A stretch of DNA of 63,602 bases, counting the filler, from Globobulimina sp. (lineage: Eukaryota): the NCBI GenBank assembly GCA_003354225.1. It is 38 parts of 38 records of this genome, joined end to end, with 100 filler letters (N's around TTAATTAATTAA, not from the genome) between each part and the next. Parts side by side here need not be neighbours in the genome. Positions count along the whole stretch, not along the records: positions 11,747 to 13,323 come from PIVH01014604.1; 37 more parts are not named here. One strand, given 5' to 3'. The notes below the pieces were generated by a model that had not been told where the DNA came from, did no database searches, and saw nothing but the letters and a program-made list of their open reading frames with translations. Shown one piece after another: positions 1,962-53,552 of this stretch (positions are counted from its first letter, which is position 1; each line of letters opens with the position of its first letter). The position numbers and the translations under genes are program-made.

Positions 1962-2969
1962 TTACAATGTTAATGTCAAGATTAAAGGTTTATGATCCGA
2001 GCCAAAACCAATGCCATTGGCCACATCAGAAACATAATTTTGCAGCGTTTTATTCACAAAACAATGATCCAACCTTATCGGTGGTAGCATAAAATATCGG
2101 TTTGGAAACGACTTTAAATATCTTTTCCCACATAAATGAAACACACATTTCATATCTATTTTTCTATATTGTTTTATCCAAAAATTATATTGTGTCGTAT
2201 TAAAATCACCCGCAACTAACAATCCTTTATTTACATCATTTCCAATATTTTCTTCTTTTATAAGCTCAAATATTTTGGATTGATGAGAATTAAAATATTT
2301 TATATACGCTCCATCTTTAGATATTCGAGGTGGCGGTATATGAATATTATAGATTTGAATTAATAATTCATTTTTCATTCGAACCAATGTTTTGCAATAT
2401 GGAAAACCATCAATTTCAAATATTTCAGCCTGTATCAATTCGTATTTACTAAATATTGCTATTCCAAATCCATCTCTTCTTACTTGCTTTATATGAAATG
2501 GATACATATTTGGACATAAATTGAATTTATTAAATGATTCATCCCAAATGTAACTGAATTCTTGCAATAATAAAATATCCGCATTAATCGATATTATTTC
2601 CTTTGTAATCGGCACTGGATTTGTATGGACATTTAAGAGGTTACATGAAAATATCACAATCTTACATGACTGGTCAGTGCTTGTCGCTGTGTGCAGTTTG
2701 CGATTATGTAGCCATGGTTTGATTCGATCCACAAATTCAGGATAAATTGCTGTTAAATGGCTGATGCAAATATAACATGAGGATATGACCATAAATAAAT
2801 CATCAATGTGATGCATGAATGTTAATACAAGAATCATGCATTGAATCAAATATTCATAAAATAAAAACTGGTTTATCCATATTAAATACATGTGTGCATC
2901 GTATGTTTGTGGTATTAATCGTAATGTTACAGTGATAATATGAAAGAGAGTCACTATTCTACAAAGCAT
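1962..2969 (-). CDS. Membrane-anchored endonuclease/exonuclease/phosphatase (EEP, YafD-like) protein
   Basis: Motifs SCNLL, LLLQEF, AGDFN, RLDH and SDHKP; hydrophobic N-terminus; no introns. Confidence 0.85.
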   Translation of the reverse strand: MLCRIVTLFHIITVTLRLIPQTYDAHMYLIWINQFLFYEYLIQCMILVLTFMHHIDDLFMVISSCYICISHLTAIYPEFVDRIKPWLHNRKLHTATSTDQSCKIVIFSCNLLNVHTNPVPITKEIISINADILLLQEFSYIWDESFNKFNLCPNMYPFHIKQVRRDGFGIAIFSKYELIQAEIFEIDGFPYCKTLVRMKNELLIQIYNIHIPPPRISKDGAYIKYFNSHQSKIFELIKEENIGNDVNKGLLVAGDFNTTQYNFWIKQYRKIDMKCVFHLCGKRYLKSFPNRYFMLPPIRLDHCFVNKTLQNYVSDVANGIGFGSDHKPLILTLTL

Positions 2970-3031
2970 CCAAACTAGGAGGGGACAGGCCCCAAAAACC
3001 CAAGAGGAATTGATTTCTTAAAGTTTTGAAG

Positions 3032-7926: not shown

Positions 7927-8289
7927 TCAGTCCCTAATTCGATTTCTTTTGGCTGCGTAAAGACATAGATTCATAAAACATTTATTACAACAATTGCACA
8001 ATGAGATATATAATGGATAACCGAATGGAATCATCATGATCACACAAACGGAATTGATTAAACTATCAATACTCGCCATATTCATCGGTATCAGCAATGT
8101 CAACCTTGTTTGTGGCAGGAAAATAAAACGAAATGAACACCAAAAAAATGTCACCAACGCAACCGAGCTGGACGTAATAAACACCAATACAGAATTCCTT
8201 GCAGTCACTTGCAAAAAATCTAATCGCACCTTCTGACTATGTTTTTTTTTGGTTCTGACACTATTTCGGCGTACAATTGTTGGTGGTGC
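7927..8289 (-). CDS. C-terminal part of orphan 7TM protein
   Basis: Two TM helices and the DSLINSVC-x6-F-x4-Y-x3-C-x2-C motif shared with the 12055 gene. Confidence 0.65.
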   Translation of the reverse strand, partial: APPTIVRRNSVRTKKKHSQKVRLDFLQVTARNSVLVFITSSSVALVTFFWCSFRFIFLPQTRLTLLIPMNMASIDSLINSVCVIMMIPFGYPLYISLCNCCNKCFMNLCLYAAKRNRIRD

Positions 8290-11965: not shown

Positions 11966-12054
11966 ACCAAAAGTGTTTTCAACTTATACACAAACTCGCA
12001 CCCTGATATGAGGGCGTTGCGTTTTTCATTCCCAAATAAAACTTACTTCAAACT

Positions 12055-13169
12055 ATGCAATTCGTGTTGTTTTTCGTTCATTTTGGATCGGGAATATTTT
12101 GTTTCCTTATTTCATTAATCTTGTGGTTTTACTATCTTGTACAGCCAGCAATCAATGCATCAGAATCTAGCCCTATTCGTTTGTTGGCAGTGACGACTGT
12201 TATTGTGTATTGTATTAATTGTTGGACATTGACATATCGAATAAAACTTCTTGACTCAGAGCAACAGCCATCAACACGCATACAATGGAATATAGCATAT
12301 ATAACATTCGGGGTTTGGAGATTAGCGCAATCATTAACATATATTATCTTCATTTTAAGGTTAAAACAAACTTTCAAAGGCACAAAATATTCGTCATATG
12401 CATGTACTTATAATTTATTGTATGTAACAAGCATTTTATTCGCAGTTCCTGAGCTTGTCAAAGATATAATATACCAATGCTTTGCGCCATCATTGGCCGT
12501 AAAAGATTTAGTAATTGTCTGCGAATTCATTATATCCGCTATTATTGATTTAGTTCTATCCGTTGCGTTGTTATATTTATTCTTAAGAAAATTATACTCT
12601 TTGAACTTAGATATTGCTTATTTACACCGTGCAAAACTGAATACCCATAATTTAGAAAAATATATGAAAATAAATCATATCATTGCCAAAATATCACTGT
12701 TGACCCTTTGGAGTGTGACATCCACTCAGATATTAATGGCGTTATTTTGTCTCGTATTTATGTGGCATTATGATAAAGGAAACTCAATGTTGGTGATTGC
12801 ATATATTTGGAACATTGTATGGTCATTGGATTGTTGCATTAAGTAATATTTTCCCATCAAAACGCAAACATCACAACATGTACAAAACTGAAGAAACTAA
12901 AGGAAATTTAAAACGAAATGTCTGTGTTTTGATGGGAAAATATTACTTATAATAGTTGTGTTTGTATATTCTGGAGTTTTGATTTTGCAGTATCATGGTA
13001 TTTCTGCTTTTGTAGAAAATGTCATAAGCGGTGTGTTCGCTGTTGCACAGAAAGAGGAATCTATGATATTGAGCGATTATTGTCATATTCAGCACTAAAC
13101 AAACAAACAGCAAGTTCTATAAACGATTCATATCGCGCTCAAGTATTGATAGGCGATCTAATAAAATAA
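12055..13169 (+). CDS. Orphan 7TM protein; exon 1 12055-12842, exon 2 12956-13169
   Basis: Splicing gives DCCIN-CVCIFWSFDFAVSWYFCFCRKCH, which aligns without gaps to the paralog motif at 7927-8289. Confidence 0.8.
12843..12955 (+). mobile_element. TIR-bounded intron (introner-like MITE), copy 1
   Basis: 29-bp TIRs at 12843-12871 and 12918-12946 (27/29 match). The GT donor is the first 2 nt of the TIR; the intron ends in AG 9 nt after the right TIR. Confidence 0.8.
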
Positions 13170-13498
13170 TGTCTTAAATCACGTACTAATATTTGTTTTT
13201 TGTTTTTGTATAGTTTAGTTTAGCCCAAACATCTCCGTAAGCTGCATCATACCATCAAGCCACCTCTCCGTAAGCTGGTGCGAGTCAATATATTCTGGCA
13301 ATCCCACATAACCTTTTGAATGTNNNNNNNNNNNNNNNNNNNNNNNNNNNNNNNNNNNNNNNNNNNNTTAATTAATTAANNNNNNNNNNNNNNNNNNNNN
13401 NNNNNNNNNNNNNNNNNNNNNNNAGTTCTTTACATTCCTTTTTATATCGCTTGATATCAATTTTTGATTGCAACAATTGTTCATGTAATGAGACAATA

Positions 13499-21436: not shown

Positions 21437-22449
21437 AGATAATAATACAGAGAAACGGCAACTCCTTACTCAATAATAGTTTTTAACCTACAAATCACAT
21501 AATGGGTACTTGTTGCAGTTGCTGGGTGATTGCGTGCCGTGCCACATCAGAGTTTTCTACTATAATATTTTGTATTTGTTAATTAACCAATTTTGTGCAG
21601 CACTGTCTTTGATTATAAATTGCTTTGATTGTAATAATTTTTCAAATTGAGTTATATTTATTTGATTGTGTTGATTGTTCATGTTCGAATTCTGGATCAT
21701 TCCAATGGNNNNNNNNNNNNNNNNNNNNNNNNNNNNNNNNNNNNNNNNNNNNTTAATTAATTAANNNNNNNNNNNNNNNNNNNNNNNNNNNNNNNNNNNN
21801 NNNNNNNNCGTATCCAGTGCGCAAACAATTGAGATCACCAAAAAAAATGAGAAATAAATTGAAAAATATATTAATGTTAATTTTAATGAAGTATCCATTT
21901 TAATGAGGATAGTATCAGTATTAGTATAGGAAGTAGTACAGGTTCACGAGTTAGACTTGAAAAACTAACCTGTTTTTGTGTTTATGAAATGTTTTCAGGA
22001 TTGGAAAGGAAATTTCAAGGCGGAGAAAAAAAGTTCACAATAATAAATACATTGAACCAAATACTAAAAACATACCGAAAATTCAATTAATTATAAATTT
22101 GTTCTGACTTTGTTCTGGATTTGCAAACTCAAGACAAAGTTATAACAAACCCAGAACAAACACAAGACGAACCTATAGCAAACCGTTTCTGGATCTGAAA
22201 AGCGTTTCTCAGATAATTGAATAAAATGTATACAACTTATCGACCAGGGGGGAGGGTTATCTTTTGGAATATATCGTTCAGTTAGAAATGTATGATTTTT
22301 GGCTTAACAATTTTTGGCTTACAAGCTAGGCAATCGCACATCCACATTTACTTTCTTCAATTGTTGTGTCTGTTGTTGTATCGAATGGAAGAACTTTCGT
22401 CTCTACAAACGAAAGATGTCAATTTACATTCAGTAATAATAACATTAAA

Positions 22450-22576
22450 GTAATGTAATATTTCCAGTCAAAACACGAACAAAATATCGATTCAAAAAAA
22501 AACAGAACAAAAAACAAATACAGTATCGAACAATCGAACATAGTTCGTGTTTTGATTGGAAATATTACTCATTAAG
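22450..22576 (+). mobile_element. TIR-bounded intron (introner-like MITE), copy 2
   Basis: 26-bp TIRs at 22455-22480 and 22543-22568 (25/26 match), homologous to copy 1. GT..AG removal joins MEELSS...ITL-N-DLKDDIIKK in frame. Confidence 0.7.
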
Positions 22577-22629
22577 CGATTTGAAGGATGATATCATTAA
22601 GAAAACTGATAATCATAATACGTATTCAA

Positions 22630-22697
22630 ATGATAACCGTTTGTTGAGTAAAAAAGCAGTTTTTTCGTTTTTCGCACACGAATTTTTGTTTACTTTT
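22630..22697 (+). repeat. Dispersed 68-bp repeat, identical to 1800-1867
   Basis: Exact match between unrelated contigs. Confidence 0.9.
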
Positions 22698-22914
22698 TGT
22701 TTACTTTTTGTGAGTAAAATTGAAAAAATATATCATTGAGTTAAAAAAATATCACATGATTTAGACAAAAACATAGACAAATACACAAAAAACCAAATAG
22801 CAAACATAATAAATATAGACAAGCATACTATTAATGCATACAAAATGAACAAAAATCCGGGTAAAAAAAACAAAAAACTGCTTTTCAGCGCACAGATATA
22901 AACAAACCTCCCCA

Positions 22915-23197
22915 TAATATTCTATATCCATAGATGAAGCGGCTTCGCCGCTTGTCACTGATACCAAATATATATATTATAAAATAATTCTATGGTACAT
23001 ACATGAAGCGGCTTCGCCGCTTGCTATAATACCAAATATTAATAAATATAAAATATTCTATGCTCATAGATGATGCGGCTTCGCCGCTTGCCATAAATAC
23101 CAAATATAAATGTTATAAAATAGTTCTGGTGCGAATGTATCCATAAATGCCAATGTATTTCTATGGCCATTTCTTCGCTTTCCATTGATACCAAATG
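22915..23197. repeat. Tandem ~68-bp repeat, 3 good + 1 decayed units, each with a GC hairpin
   Basis: A(A/T)GCGGCTTCGCCGCTT at 22937, 23006 and 23073, flanked by TTCTAT and ATACCAAAT. Confidence 0.85.
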
Positions 23198-23677: not shown

Positions 23678-24493
23678 TTATAATTTTGATTTGAAACAAA
23701 TTTCATTAACAACAGCAGTAACAACATGCCAATTTGCTTTGAGATGGAAGAGTTGCTTTGGAAACCATGGGATATTTTCCTTTTTTTGCTTTTCTATTAA
23801 CTCCTTTACATGTTTTCTATTTGCAATTCGATGATAATGCTCAAACAAAATTGGATAACTTGTTCCAATCATCACTTTAAATGCGTTATCACCAAATAAT
23901 TCATTCAGACCATCCAATATATTAAATACAGCTAAATCCGCTTGAGATATTCGATTAGCAAAATAAAATAATTGGTCTTTGCTTACAGTCAATGGTTTTT
24001 CTAATATATCCAACCATATTTTAAATCTTCCATTAATAAATTCTGCGACCTTATTTCTATCGATATCTGTGCCCAATGTAGCTGTCAATGGCCCCGCCAA
24101 ATCATAAATATTTGTAAATAATTCATTACAGTGTGCAACAATCATTTGTGCTCTGTAATGGTCCTCGATCCTATCTGGCCGCAATCCAATTTGTTCACAA
24201 ATATAACCAACACAATGTTCTGTTTGACAAATTATTATTTCTTCATTTTCTTCTGATTCATTTCGTTTATTGTGAATAATAAATGGCACTGCCATTGGTT
24301 GGAAAATTGCATGATTTGCTTGTGTCAGTTTGCCAAAATAATTTGAACGTATTTTCGACCGAACTAATTCTGCATCAATCACTAATTTGTATGCAACTCC
24401 AGCTTCTGCAAATAATAATTGAATGAAGTTACCACGATTTTTTAGTCGCCAATACCATAACTCCCATTCTGGTTCGCTTGCTAATGAAGGCAT
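23678..24493 (-). CDS. Glutathione S-transferase
   Basis: WELWYWRLKNRGNFIQLLFAEAGVAY, AVPFI, ICQT, FYFANRISQADLAVF. Confidence 0.88.
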   Translation of the reverse strand: MPSLASEPEWELWYWRLKNRGNFIQLLFAEAGVAYKLVIDAELVRSKIRSNYFGKLTQANHAIFQPMAVPFIIHNKRNESEENEEIIICQTEHCVGYICEQIGLRPDRIEDHYRAQMIVAHCNELFTNIYDLAGPLTATLGTDIDRNKVAEFINGRFKIWLDILEKPLTVSKDQLFYFANRISQADLAVFNILDGLNELFGDNAFKVMIGTSYPILFEHYHRIANRKHVKELIEKQKKENIPWFPKQLFHLKANWHVVTAVVNEICFKSKL

Positions 24494-24539
24494 ACTGCAC
24501 AAAAAAAAAGTTTTAATTAGTAAGTTTCACTCGATCAAC

Positions 24540-25062
24540 ATGTCAGAACTTACTAAATTTGTAGCAGTCACCTCAGGATTGTTGACATCTGCGTTAGTTT
24601 CATTACATTTGAAATTTGGAGTGCGACTCAGAAACGTGCGTTTTGCTTGTGATGATTTGAAAAAAACGGAAAATAATAATAATATTGCATTGCCGTCAAC
24701 ATTTTCAATTTTATCTCAAAACATTTGGTGTTCGTTTATCTGCGGAGGAGCGGATAGACGCAAAAGATTGAAATTATTGATGGAGAATATCAGTGAAGGT
24801 AATCCAGATATTATTTGTTTGCAAGAAATGTTTATTTTTGCATTAGGTCCATTTCTGATTTGTGGTGATTTTGAATATTTGCATAATGAATTGGTAAATA
24901 CATTTGGTTATAAATATTATTCCGATGCAAAACAAACATTGCCGAAACTCTTTGGAGGAAATAACGGTTTAATGATATATTCAAAATATAAATTGGATTG
25001 TTGTGAGTCGTATGCCTTTAATACAGATATTCGCAGATTATTATCTGCCAAAGGATGGATAT
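24540..25062 (+). CDS. EEP-family phosphodiesterase (neutral sphingomyelinase-like), 3'-partial
   Basis: LSQNIW, PDIICLQEMF, NNGLMIYSKY, LSAKG. Confidence 0.75.
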
Positions 25063-33544: not shown

Positions 33545-35120
33545 CCTCCGCCTAAAACTGTCAGTCAAAATCGTGGCCGGAGCGGTTCCGGCCGTGGGTA
33601 TGGTCATGGCAGAGGTGGTAGATTTCGTAGTCATGGTGGTCGTGTGAATCAAGTAGACACTTCGAACACTTATAATGAAGGTGCCTTCACAGCAGTTTGT
33701 GGGGTTGAATTTCAAAAAGACAAGAAGTATTGGGTGATTGATTCCGGTGCAACTAGACATATGACAGTTGATAAAAATGTTCTGTTTGATTATCATTTAT
33801 TGTCTGTTCCCGAATCTGTGTCCATTGCTGATGGTACTAAATGTAATGCTTTAGGTGTTGGTAAATGTGTAATGTATATACATGTTAGTGATACCAATTC
33901 TGTTAAATGTACTTTACATGATGTACTGTATGTCCCCAATTTGTCAAGTAATTTTTTCTCTGTACGTGCTGCAACACTTTGTGGCAATATTGTTGAATTT
34001 GGTCATTCCAAATGTTGGATCACAACTTCCAAGCAACAGTTAGTTGCTACTGGTCACTTACAAGATCAAATGTATGTTTTGGATTGCCAATCAGTGGAAC
34101 AAGTGAAACCTGATCAAGTGTGTGTTGCAACGACAGAAAGTCAAAAATTGGACTTATGGCATCAACGGCTCGGTCATATTGGTTGTCAATGACTCAAAAA
34201 TGCAGTGAACAAGAATCAGCTCACTGGCATTGACATTCCTTCTCAACAACTCAGTAAAGGAACCTTGTCATTTTGTGATGGCTGTGCCGAAGGAAAAATT
34301 ATACGAAAGCCCTTCAAGCCTATCGGTGAAATCAGATCAACGAGAATCTTAGAACTTGTCCACAGTGATGTTTGTGGTCCAATGAATGTTCAATCACTAG
34401 GTGGAGCAAGATATTTTGCGACATTTACTGATGATTTCAGCCGAATGTGTCAAGTTCACTTTATGCGAAACAAGTCTGAACTTATGGAGAAGTTCAAGTT
34501 GTATGAAGCTTCTGTCTACAATGACTGTGATTGGAAATATCGCATCAAACGCTTCCGTAGTGACAATGGAGGAGAATACACTTCGAAAGAATTTGAAAAT
34601 TATTTGAAGTCGAAGGGGATAAAGCATGAAGTCACCACACCATATACTCCTCAACAAAATGGTGTCGCTGAGAGAATGAACCGAACACTCCAAAATATTG
34701 CCATTGCTCAGGTGTCACATGCCAGTTTGTCGAAAGGTTTTTGGGCAGAGTCAATTGAAAATGCCAATTACATTCGAAATCGGGTGCCCACATCGACTAC
34801 ACAAATGACACCTTATGAACGCTGGTATGGTCGGAAACCAAATGTTAGCTACTTCAAAGTGTTTGGTTGTGTTGCATTTGCTCTCAAACCTGATGTGAAT
34901 CGGAAGAAGTTTGACATGAAATCTGAAAAGCTTCGATTTATTGGATATCCTCGTGGTTCAAAAGGATACAAATTGTGGGATGGAACCAAACATCAAATTG
35001 TAATTCGACGTGATGTGTTGTTCAATGAGAACGAGTTTGATCTATCCAAATGGAGTCCAGTTGATCCCGGTGATCCTCCTGTTGACAGACCTATGGTAAT
35101 TGTACCACCTGCTCAAATAC
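33545..35120 (+). mobile_element. Ty1/copia LTR retrotransposon gag-pol fragment with an in-frame TGA at 34190-34192
   Basis: WVIDSGATRHM (protease), LWHQRLGH, HSDVCGP, RSDNGGEY, QNGVAERMNRTL (integrase). Confidence 0.95.
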
Positions 35121-48627: not shown

Positions 48628-49084
48628 ATCACTACATTTACACTCAATGTTTTTATCAATCCACCACCACATACAACAGATCGAAATAGTTAATTATATA
48701 TAATGCACATTGTTTTCATATTGTGTGGTATATATTGAGCGGAATAGATAGCTGCCCCCTTTTTTTGTTATTATATATAGTATGCTTTTGATTGTTTGTC
48801 AAAAGAAATGTATATAGCTGTCAGACGTGACCTGATTGCTGAAATTTTGTGATGTTCCTAACAAAGCGAATGAAATTAATATTAGATTTGCTTCATATAT
48901 TTCTGCGATATTTACCGTTATAGCATTGATTTACGCGTTAATTATGACTGAACCAGCACTAATCGCAGAGAAATATCGACAAGAGTTGGGATATGAAAAC
49001 AATGTGCATTATATATAATTAACTATTTCGATCTGTTGTATGTGGTGGTGGATTGATAAAAACATTGAGTGTAAATGTAGTGAT
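48628..49084. repeat. Perfect 94-bp inverted repeat (48628-48721 / 48991-49084)
   Basis: Exact reverse complement starting at the contig edge; probable amplification foldback. Confidence 0.85.
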
Positions 49085-50302: not shown

Positions 50303-51829
50303 GTCTCCAAACCGTGCCTATGTTTATAATTCAAATGGATGTGGATCTCAGCCTGCGTGGTATGTGGACTATGTGCAAATCTATTATAAGTTTGGATGAG
50401 TTTCTACAATATATCACATGAAAGGGAATGTTCTCAACCAATGCCATTGCCATTACCAACATTTACAATCGCAGAAGCAGTGAATAAATACAATAAATTA
50501 TATGAACCAAGCAAGCCATACATCAGCTCAATATTTGGCAAATGGCATTTAGGAAACTTTTTTAATAAATCCACAGGACATAGCAATGTGAGTAGGCCTG
50601 ACCAGCATGGATTTGATCATTGGTTTTGTACCGAAGCCTCAGCGCCGAGCTGTACGCCAAATTGTGGGTGTTTCCCACCACCATATGATTCGTGCATCAC
50701 TGGCCATTATAATCTAAGCAAGCCGTGGTGTACTAATTATTGGTTTGCAGACAATTTGACCGCCACCGGCGTAATGAATGTATCCTACAGAATCAATGGG
50801 AGTCAATCTGTCGACGCAGTATTCATCATTGATCACTTTGAAAGTTGGTTAGATGGCATAGATTTGAGTAAGAATAATATTCTGGTTATGCTATGGCTGC
50901 ATTCTGTGCATAATCCATGGACAGCTACACCAGAATGGAGAGCTGGCTGTGCCAATGGTACTCATTGTAATATTTCCAGATTTGCTGGCAAAGGACAACC
51001 TACTTCGGAGCAGTTGGACTATTTTGGCGATGTTGCTTCCATGGATACGCAGATTGGACGGGTTCGCAAGATATTGCAAACTAAAAATATTGCGCAGAAC
51101 ACATATTTATATTTTACTTCTGATAACGGGCCAGGTACAGCAATATGTGCTGCATAATTGGTGTGTATGCAGTAAATATATAATTTGATTGGAATGAAAT
51201 AAACAGAACCAACAGGCTCCGCTGCTGCGGGTATACCGCATTGGGGCAATGAACAGTGGCCAGGTTCGACCAATGGTTTTCGAGGAAGGAAAGGAGATGT
51301 TTGGGAGGGCGGAATTCGCGAAGCAACGATCATTGAATGGCCAGATGTGATAAAGTATAATAAATTGAGTGCGTTTCCCATTGTTACTTATGATTTGTTA
51401 CCGACAATAATGGATATTTTAAATGTAACCTCGGATAATGAGTATGTTGTTGATGGGGAAACATTGTATCCAATGTTATTAAGCAACGGCGAGATGACGA
51501 ATCGTACAAAGAATATGGGCTGGATACTCAACAAAGGAGCTGCGTATCAAACAAATGAATGGAAAATTGTTAATAATTCGGCACATTGCAATAAAACAAA
51601 GGGTGAATGTGCTCCGGCTTTGTATAATATAATAAGTGATCCTTTTGAACTATATAATGTTACTAAAGCAAACCTGGATTTATATGTTAAATTAATGGCG
51701 GAGTTTATTGAATGGCAAAATAGTGTTGGAAGCTCACAAATTAATGAAAGTGGATGTGGCGTAAATAATGTTTACTTTAATAACCACGGGGAATCTGACT
51801 TTGATAGAATGTTGTACTACTACTACTAA
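50303..51829 (+). CDS. Arylsulfatase, 5'-partial, with intron near 51135-51226
   Basis: FGKWHLG, GFDHW, MDTQIGR, FTSDNGP, FRGRKGDVWEGGIR, DLLPTI, LYNIISDPFE. Confidence 0.92.
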
Positions 51830-52257: not shown

Positions 52258-53552
52258 ATGAATTTAGAGTGTAATTGCATCCCGCGCCGTGTGGGTGTAG
52301 TGGATCGATATGTACCAATCTTAGAAAATCCTGTGAATAAAATCCTAATATTAGGAAGTGGTTCGGTAGGGAAATCTGCTGTATTTAAATCAATCAGACG
52401 CATTCACATCGATCATTTAAGTGATGCAGAACTATGTGAAGGTCGGAGCGTTATCAGACAAAACTTGGTTGCTGGAATATTAACATTATTAAAGAAATCA
52501 CAAGAACTATTTGAAAGTTACAATGAATTTGATGAGGAATATAACAATACAGATGCTATCATTCATGGTTATGAAGGATTGGCAGATAGAAATTTATTGA
52601 AATGCTGGGTAGAGTTTACTGATGACATTATGAGAAACATACAATTGATTGTAAATTATGGCAGTGAATCATTTGCGCAGGTTTTGGATTATAATGACAT
52701 TGCACATTTAGGAGTTGCAATTCATGAAATATGGAATCTATTACCTGTGCAACAAACGTTTTTACTTCGATTGAAAAGATATTACTCCTTTGTAGAAAAT
52801 ATGGATTACTTTTTCGATAAAAGTGTCGATACAATGTCAGAGACTTATATCCCAACAGAAGAAGATATGCAGAAACTAAGGGTAAGAACTACAGGATCTA
52901 TAGACTATCAATACGAAGATGATAAAAATAATACATTTCAAATAATGTATGTGATGATAACATATGTAAACCAATAATGTACAAACAACCGCTGATCCAA
53001 TAATAAAATGTGTTTGTTCCTTTTATTATATTCCTTTTATTATTTGATAAACTCAGCTGTTTGTGCATTGATGTTTGATTACGATGTAACTTAAGAGATG
53101 TTGGTGGAGAACGAAATGAACGCAAAAAATGGATTCATAGCTTTGAGAATGTAGCCTGTGTATTGTATGTAACTGCATTGGATCAATTTTGTAAATCTTT
53201 GTTTGAAGATGAAAAGCAAATTGGTTTATTGGAGAGTTTGGATTTATTTTATGAGATTTGTAACAGGAAATGGTTTAGAAAAAGTGTAATTGTATTATTG
53301 CTCAATAGAACGGATTTATTCCGTAGCAGTTTGGCCATAACTCCATTAACATTTTGTTTTGGAGAGGAGTATAAAGGCCGGAATTTTTGTGATCAAATTA
53401 CTGATGCAAATGATGTAAAATCTGCATTAAGCCTTGTCACAAAAATATTGATTTATTTTATTGATTTGGACAATAATAAAAAAGATAGTACATTTAATAT
53501 ACCACGGGATGTGATACAAATCATTGGCAGATATATACATGAATTGCGGGAA
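52258..53552 (+). CDS. Divergent heterotrimeric G-protein alpha subunit; intron 52947-53095; partial
   Basis: KILILGSGSVGKS, RVRTTG, DVGGERNERKKWIHSFENV, LLLNRTDLF. Confidence 0.9.

Follow-up and report, generated by a model that had tools for sequence, protein, structure and literature searches.

A segment of 113 nucleotides that interrupts a gene for a multi-pass membrane protein in Globobulimina sp. (assembly GCA_003354225.1) appears to be a U2-type spliceosomal intron and, at the same time, one member of a dispersed family of hairpin-forming elements with terminal inverted repeats (TIRs), that is, an introner-like element; we assign this reading a probability of about 0.7. The segment, called copy 1 below, occupies positions 12843–12955 of the DNA analyzed here, a stretch of 63,602 nucleotides (the window) that is made of 38 separate contigs of 1575–1578 bp each, ordered by length and joined by linkers of 44 N's, a 12-nucleotide sequence with stops in all frames and another 44 N's. 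GC content along the window is about 28–42%. The segment and its host gene lie on one contig (11747–13323), to which the rest of the window is unlinked. Since the contigs are unlinked, genes that stand next to each other in the window are not real neighbours, and nothing can be argued from gene order across a linker.

The host gene, on the plus strand like all features of the two repeat copies described below, starts at the ATG at 12055, and the protein homolog P0003 begins at a methionine equivalent to it. The first exon (12055–12842) ends with the first two bases of an asparagine codon and belongs to an open reading frame (ORF) of 268 codons, 12040–12846, which is closed by the TAA at 12844–12846, the stop that a preliminary description of this DNA had pointed out. 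The second exon (12956–13169) completes the asparagine codon with its third base and runs on through the Cys-rich C-terminal part (70 codons) to the stop at 13167–13169; it falls in a second ORF, 12933–13169, in a different frame from the first. Between the exons stands the 113-bp GT..AG unit that had been described: a phase 2 segment of 28% GC that begins with GTAATA (GT at 12843–12844) and closes with TAATAG (AG at 12954–12955). Its size and GC content resemble those of two ordinary introns in the window (72 and 149 nucleotides; see below).

Deletion of exactly 12843–12955 fuses AA and T into the asparagine codon and lets the reading frame continue in that of the second ORF. We aligned the resulting translation with 17 of 53 homologs, chosen because only matches that reach query residue 261 or beyond (of 268) can speak to the junction, and with a paralog in the window (7930–8289, minus strand). 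All 18 sequences are gap-free over the junction, where exon 1 ends in SLDCCI plus two bases of the asparagine codon, exon 2 opens with CVCIFWSFDF, and the homolog P0005 has IDCCINCICIFWSFDF. The strong support comes from the database homologs. The window paralog, placed at 7927–8289 in the preliminary description, does align without a gap as stated there, but is weak by itself (tblastn E = 0.52, 35% over 31 amino acids). Several other outcomes were considered and rejected. Read-through of the segment leads to an immediate stop and is unsupported by any of the 18 aligned sequences; excision of the element together with one TA produces a frame that 0 of the 18 match; excision with a TTAA duplication, worked out by hand, shifts the frame likewise; and excision of the kind seen for the internal eliminated sequences of ciliates is ruled out by the same frame mismatch.

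Ten public runs were listed, eight of them with part of the contig, and contigs of four runs (X1, X3, X6 and X7) were compared with the window. An X1 contig of 1090 nucleotides, 99.7% identical to the window, has 12013–12842 joined to 12956–13215 and skips exactly the 113 nucleotides from GT to AG. The joint has 255 nucleotides on its shorter side and 0 letters common to both sides, and the three differences from the window (at 12111, 12291 and 12333, where the window has T, T and A, respectively) are all synonymous third positions. One X6 contig of 118 nucleotides has the same joint as X1; a second X6 contig and an X7 contig (401 nucleotides) have the joint with a synonymous T>C change at 12956. 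Joined contigs were therewith found in three runs from three studies. The contigs of X6 and X7 are only about 90–96% like the window and are therefore from close paralogs or relatives.

In the X1 run, which totals 190 million letters, the joined contig reached a word depth of 82.9, the flanks having depths of 11.8, 0 and 15–42, and it ends 42 nucleotides before the ATG and 46 nucleotides after the stop. The high depth in a small run, the low flank depths and the ends near the ATG and the stop argue that this contig represents RNA. The contigs of X3, the probable DNA source (depth about 5), stop at 12831 and resume at 12976, so that they neither cover the element nor bridge it, and none of the four compared runs covers 12860–12912. 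A reading of the joint as an empty insertion site is disfavoured, because a comparison of filled with empty sites should show a duplicated target and there is none here. The joined form in three runs, together with the frame and the alignment restored against 18 of 18 sequences, upholds the earlier proposal that the segment is an intron, which we regard as highly probable. The window paralog is genomic and uninterrupted at the intron site, which would point to a gain of the intron rather than a loss. The preliminary description had called the window paralog intronless; some of the other paralogs that could be so called are transcriptome-derived proteins, which carry no information on introns. 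Uninterrupted ORFs are also what the database homologs show, and four of the ten that were looked up come from a transcriptome-based set.

Copy 1 is almost wholly an inverted repeat. A repeat finder delimited arms of 32 nucleotides at 12840–12871 and 12918–12949, with 30 of 32 positions paired (94% complementary) and 46 nucleotides between them. The 29-bp TIR reported earlier, with its 27/29 match, is correct as far as it goes, the full arm reaching 3 bp further outward. The three outermost paired bases of the left arm (12840–12842) are exonic, and the arm provides the donor, GTAATA from 12843, as had been claimed. The terminal 21-mer (12843–12863) is perfectly reverse-complemented at 12926–12946; allowing up to 3 mismatches, it has no further site in the window, and none of 100 shuffles produced a match. 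The loop (12872–12917; 46 nucleotides) is A-rich and cannot be aligned with that of the second copy. The right arm carries TTTTGAT (12927–12933), in which A12932 is a candidate branch point, 23 nucleotides before the last base of the intron. After the conserved core of the repeat, which ends 104 nucleotides from the GT, a tail of 9 nucleotides (12947–12955) leads to the acceptor AG, at the distance from the right arm given in the preliminary description; the tail resembles the 8-nucleotide tail of the second copy. The predicted RNA fold of the region has an energy of −42.1 kcal/mol (z = −5.3), and 0 of 200 shuffles were equally stable.

A scan for inverted repeats in each contig revealed a second copy on a contig (21809–23385) unrelated to that of copy 1, with arms at 22455–22482 and 22541–22568 that pair at 26 of 28 positions. 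The inverted repeats, both A-rich, span 110 nucleotides in copy 1 and 114 nucleotides in copy 2; the ORF scan of the window found no ORF within either span, and a 96-codon stop-to-stop frame (22449–22739) crosses copy 2. When the four arms were aligned, about 28 positions proved to be conserved, and where the copies differ, both arms have changed in step. The predicted fold of copy 2 has an energy of −41.6 kcal/mol (z = −7.7), and its left end shows a 5-nucleotide tandem duplication of its own first bases. The first AG after the right arm (22575–22576) lies 8 nucleotides beyond the arm. With the donor at the start of its left arm, as in copy 1, copy 2 is a candidate intron of 127 nucleotides, GT..AG, at 22450–22576, the removal of which opens an ATG-to-stop ORF of 75 codons.

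If the ends of copy 2 are read as 22449 and 22569, the hexamer CATTAA stands on both sides of it as an exact direct repeat of 6 bp (22443–22448 and 22570–22575); the chance of such a 6-mer match at one register is 0.0004, and the 127 nucleotides equal an element of 121 plus a repeat of 6. CATTAA also stands directly to the left of copy 1 (12837–12842), where it encodes conserved residues and has no matching repeat on the right. Its presence to the left of both copies looks like a target-site preference. It is probable that the segment belongs to a dispersed inverted-repeat family. The preliminary description had proposed a mobile family of DNA transposons: the dispersed repeat is supported by the second copy at 22455–22568, but the DNA transposon is a tentative reading, copy 1 having no target-site duplication (TSD) and only copy 2 a candidate direct repeat. 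Downstream of copy 2, at a distance of 72 nucleotides, lies a 241-nucleotide GT..AG segment (22648–22888) with a 21-nucleotide inverted repeat (19/21) near each end, which may be a second kind of hairpin intron. It has no TTGAT and its host ORF is doubtful, and we did not count it as a third candidate.

We then considered the splice signals of the two copies beside those of ordinary introns. Pfam was run on the 146 ORFs of at least 75 amino acids, out of 244 ORFs of at least 60 amino acids in the window, and showed a G-alpha domain split over two frames and a sulfatase ORF ending where another frame opens. Pfam continuity supports two ordinary introns read from the sequence, at 52947–53095 in the G-alpha gene (149 nucleotides) and at 51135–51206 in the sulfatase gene (72 nucleotides). 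Both introns contain TTTGAT (TTGAT) with its A 17 and 18 nucleotides before the AG, respectively, a candidate for the branch-site consensus of this organism. TTGAT lies inside the right arm of both repeat copies, with its A 23 (copy 1) and 21 (copy 2) nucleotides upstream of the acceptor; in neither copy does another AG intervene. As the motif occurs with a frequency of 0.0027 per nucleotide, its presence near the AG in four of four cases is unlikely to be due to chance.

These features suggest how the element could act as an intron. The GTAATA of the left arm would serve as the donor, and the right arm, being the complement of the left, would supply the TTTTGAT branch motif about 23 nucleotides from the 3′ end. 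With no AG between the branch motif and the acceptor, splicing would run to the first AG after the right arm; starting from the first base of the element, it would remove exactly 113 nucleotides and restore the conserved frame. Owing to the complementarity of its arms, the element would offer the same donor and branch motif whichever way round it is inserted. The element would have entered an intronless coding exon, and for its route we lean slightly towards a TIR element moving at the DNA level. To judge by the flanking letters, copy 1 looks seamlessly integrated; copy 2, by contrast, looks like a TIR/TSD insertion, with the kind of flanking repeat expected from a cut-and-paste transposon. 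Two ways of fitting a duplication to copy 1 were rejected. A 9-bp duplication later mutated into the AG is unlikely, as the flanks match at 5 of 9 positions and the arms at 30 of 32, and a TA or TTAA duplication would require an ancestral exon 5 nucleotides longer than the message and out of frame. That the family makes introns systematically is a tentative proposition, for which the odds are somewhat unfavourable. The wider notion of an active, orientation-independent introner family in foraminifera, using a repeat of about 28 nucleotides as donor and branch site and the next AG as acceptor, must at present be called speculative and rather unlikely.

Among other explanations, the most serious is that whole GT..AG units are copied seamlessly, through an RNA intermediate or another route without a transposase, in which case the direct repeat around copy 2 would be coincidental. 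Such a route has been put forward for the symmetrical (stw)introns of the fungal family Hypoxylaceae and for introner-like elements of fungi. It would explain the seamless joint of copy 1, with 0 shared letters and no flanking direct repeat, and the similar tails that end both copies 9 and 8 nucleotides after the right arm; moreover, introns of Hypoxylaceae combine terminal inverted repeats of 45–55 nucleotides with seamless integration and a lack of flanking duplications, according to the available part of PMC8469720. What does not fit is that only the arms are conserved and the interiors cannot be aligned, which is the usual pattern of miniature inverted-repeat transposable elements (MITEs) and not of introns copied whole, and that copy 2 has the exact 6-bp repeat whose CATTAA, recurring to the left of copy 1, resembles a target-site preference. 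We consider such copying possible, at less than even odds. A much less probable alternative is that a MITE disabled the gene, which would then be a pseudogene or null allele; the joined contigs would stem from intact alleles or paralogs that never carried the element, and the GT and AG would be fortuitous. The element interior is uncovered by the runs, none of which is shown as RNA of the same individual, and a large paralogous family (51 matches at E ≤ 0.001) would tolerate one dead copy. However, a GT start and an AG end at an insertion defined by the joint have a probability of about 0.003; the joint lacks the target duplication that insertion of a TIR transposon would produce; both exons are intact, with all three differences from X1 synonymous; and a branch-like motif stands at the right distance, the acceptor being the first AG after it.

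It has also to be asked whether the intron is older than its hairpin, an ordinary intron that either took up a repeat or acquired, by fold-back duplication, a mirror copy of its own 5′ end, so that the hairpin would be secondary. The extension of the inverted repeat 3 bp into the exon (12840–12842) is what an in-place mirror copy would give. The same arm sequence, however, is found on an unrelated contig, and therefore the arms were not made locally; an older intron is also unlikely because only 9 nucleotides lie outside the repeat, against 72 and 149 nucleotides for the ordinary introns, and the genomic paralog in the window has no intron at this site. We regard this explanation as improbable. 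More improbable still is that the hairpin is retained for some independent role, for instance as a precursor, released by splicing, of a tailed-mirtron-like RNA or of small interfering RNAs. As in a 3′-tailed mirtron, the stem extends from the donor to within 6–9 nucleotides of the acceptor, and the changes between the copies are matched in both arms, so that pairing is kept; such pairing is, on the other hand, equally expected of any young TIR element. A search of Rfam gave sub-threshold matches to generic models of plant microRNA precursors with long hairpins, the best at 36.7 bits against a gathering score of 98, and 0 matches at gathering.

Set against the interpretation of copy 1 as an intron derived from a dispersed TIR element are the following points. 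Copy 1 has no TSD; the best match of the 9-nucleotide left flank with the tail is 5/9, compared with 30/32 for the arms. The donor sits within a 32-bp stem (−42 kcal/mol), which is expected to hinder binding of U1. None of the runs is on record as RNA, the kind of X1 being given as '?' and those of X6 and X7 being guessed, and no run has both filled DNA and joined RNA of one individual. The organism label of X1 differs from those of the probable source runs, and its contig could be an allele that never held the element. The interiors of copies 1 and 2 do not align, so that their kinship rests on about 28 nucleotides per arm. Restoration of a frame, as at copy 2, has a background of 299 in 7111 GT..AG pairs of 100–140 nucleotides in the window (4.2%), and no homolog was found for the 75-codon host ORF of copy 2. 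Only two independent reference introns stand behind the argument from the branch motif.

The family as known consists of two copies, one of them with transcript-like support, which likewise counts against this interpretation. A blastn-short search of the window, in all about 59.9 kb of sequence over the 38 unlinked contigs, found no third copy, the short matches inspected being due to chance. Scans of three collections for the arm pattern gave no paired copy: it occurred at 113 loci in metagenome contigs, 89 in prokaryote genome contigs and 6 in viral contigs, and among the loci retained for checking (with 95 matches in the latter two collections together) 0 had an inverted partner within 400 nucleotides. 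All of these are probably chance matches, in collections that probably hold no foraminiferal genome. Among the 146 ORFs scanned with Pfam there was no DDE-type transposase, and the mobile-element domains were limited to Ty1/copia-type integrase pieces and Exo_endo_phos domains.

The host protein had no match in Pfam, and a protein atlas placed it in unnamed clusters only. Its family is large: exon 1, searched against 1.84 billion representative proteins, gave 13 matches at E ≤ 1e-10 among the 51 mentioned above; a word-based protein search had given 3 matches only. A crude hydropathy scan indicated about seven hydrophobic stretches in the spliced protein, the junction falling in the last of them, so that the seven-transmembrane label of the preliminary description is no more than plausible. 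The two members in the window (12040–13169 and 7930–8289) are multi-pass membrane proteins with a Cys-rich tail that belong to no Pfam family, and they may represent a foraminifer-specific, receptor-like family. Four of the ten homologs looked up bear the label Bolivina argentea (EukProt), the other six being ENA or Logan proteins. These labels support a source organism that is a foraminifer or close to one, in line with the foraminiferan host suggested before. A SelO-like ORF, tried for its taxonomic affinity, gave one unnamed match only.

The window contains other features on contigs unlinked to copy 1. Fold-back repeats that reach a contig end were found at 2596–2823/3029–3256 (arms of 228 nucleotides, 97%) and at 48628–48721/48991–49084 (arms of 94 nucleotides, 100%); chimeras of amplification or assembly are one possible explanation, and large palindromic elements another. 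A hairpin element of 151 nucleotides at a contig start (3357–3507), with arms of at least 23 nucleotides (22/23), is unrelated in sequence to the family of copies 1 and 2. A unit of about 60 bp that contains a short GC-rich hairpin stands three times in tandem at 22930–23110. An ORF open over its whole contig (30195–31763) encodes PPR repeats and an E motif (Pfam PF20431, E = 4e-07), a notable combination in a foraminifer. Proteins of this build are familiar above all as RNA-editing factors of plant organelles. A Ty1/copia-type fragment at 33545–35119 (Pol beta-barrel, GAG-pre-integrase, integrase core and retroviral SH3-like domains) has one in-frame stop between its two ORFs, and ORFs with Exo_endo_phos domains (endonuclease/exonuclease/phosphatase family) lie at 1965–3017 and 24423–25061.

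Introns of a similar make have been described in several lineages, and we compare them here on the basis of the available parts of the papers cited. IE1 of Micromonas pusilla and the introners of Aureococcus anophagefferens are TIR/TSD elements (Huff et al. 2016, via PMC11282704; Gozashti et al. 2022, PMC9860276). As in copy 1, a short non-coding TIR element makes up nearly the whole intron and brings the donor, the acceptor lying at or just past the far end. The geometry of copy 2 is close to that of IE1, its AG consisting of the last A of the right direct repeat and the next base. Unlike those introners, copy 1 has no TSD, and two copies are known here compared with hundreds to thousands there; the arms are longer (28–32 nucleotides), a branch motif seems to come with the right one, and the lineage is Foraminifera.

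The symmetrical (stw)introns and related canonical introns of Hypoxylaceae share with copy 1 canonical U2 signals, long terminal inverted repeats, a near-complete hairpin and seamless integration at new positions in genes; for them, the absence of flanking duplications was read as excluding transposition of DNA (PMC8469720). In contrast to those introns, which are similar over their whole length, only the arms and a short tail align here, copy 2 has a flanking direct repeat, and there is no nested stwintron structure. The MITE-like introns of Fritillaria borealis and Amoebophrya (PMC11282704, PMC7789003) also have inverted repeats at their ends and predicted stem-loops; the direct repeats at junctions reported for them have a candidate counterpart at copy 2, and their lineage-specific positions may be shared as well. 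They are mostly non-canonical (AG-AC, AG-AT and others) and go with altered spliceosomes, whereas copy 1 is a plain GT..AG intron with ordinary-looking signals. In the supplementary tables of the 2022 (PMC9860276) and 2025 introner surveys, as far as these were available, Reticulomyxa filosa is the only foraminifer name found and is listed with zero introners. The available main text of both surveys mentions neither Rhizaria nor foraminifera, and no introner signal is reported in the available part of a rhizarian genome paper of 2026.

An intron formed by a hairpin or TIR element is thus of a known kind, and Foraminifera is a new lineage for it. The origin of new spliceosomal introns is an old open question, and introners are their best-documented source. 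The recurrence of the repeat elsewhere in the genome hints, though two copies are no proof, that mobile DNA makes new introns in foraminifera. If the orientation-independent family is real, no mobile element that generates introns would have been described in Rhizaria before it, and it would offer a countable target for foraminiferal genomics, in which assemblies still consist of fragments of about 1.5 kb. A donor and a branch signal contained in a single repeated arm would show how a selfish repeat can neutralize its own insertion.

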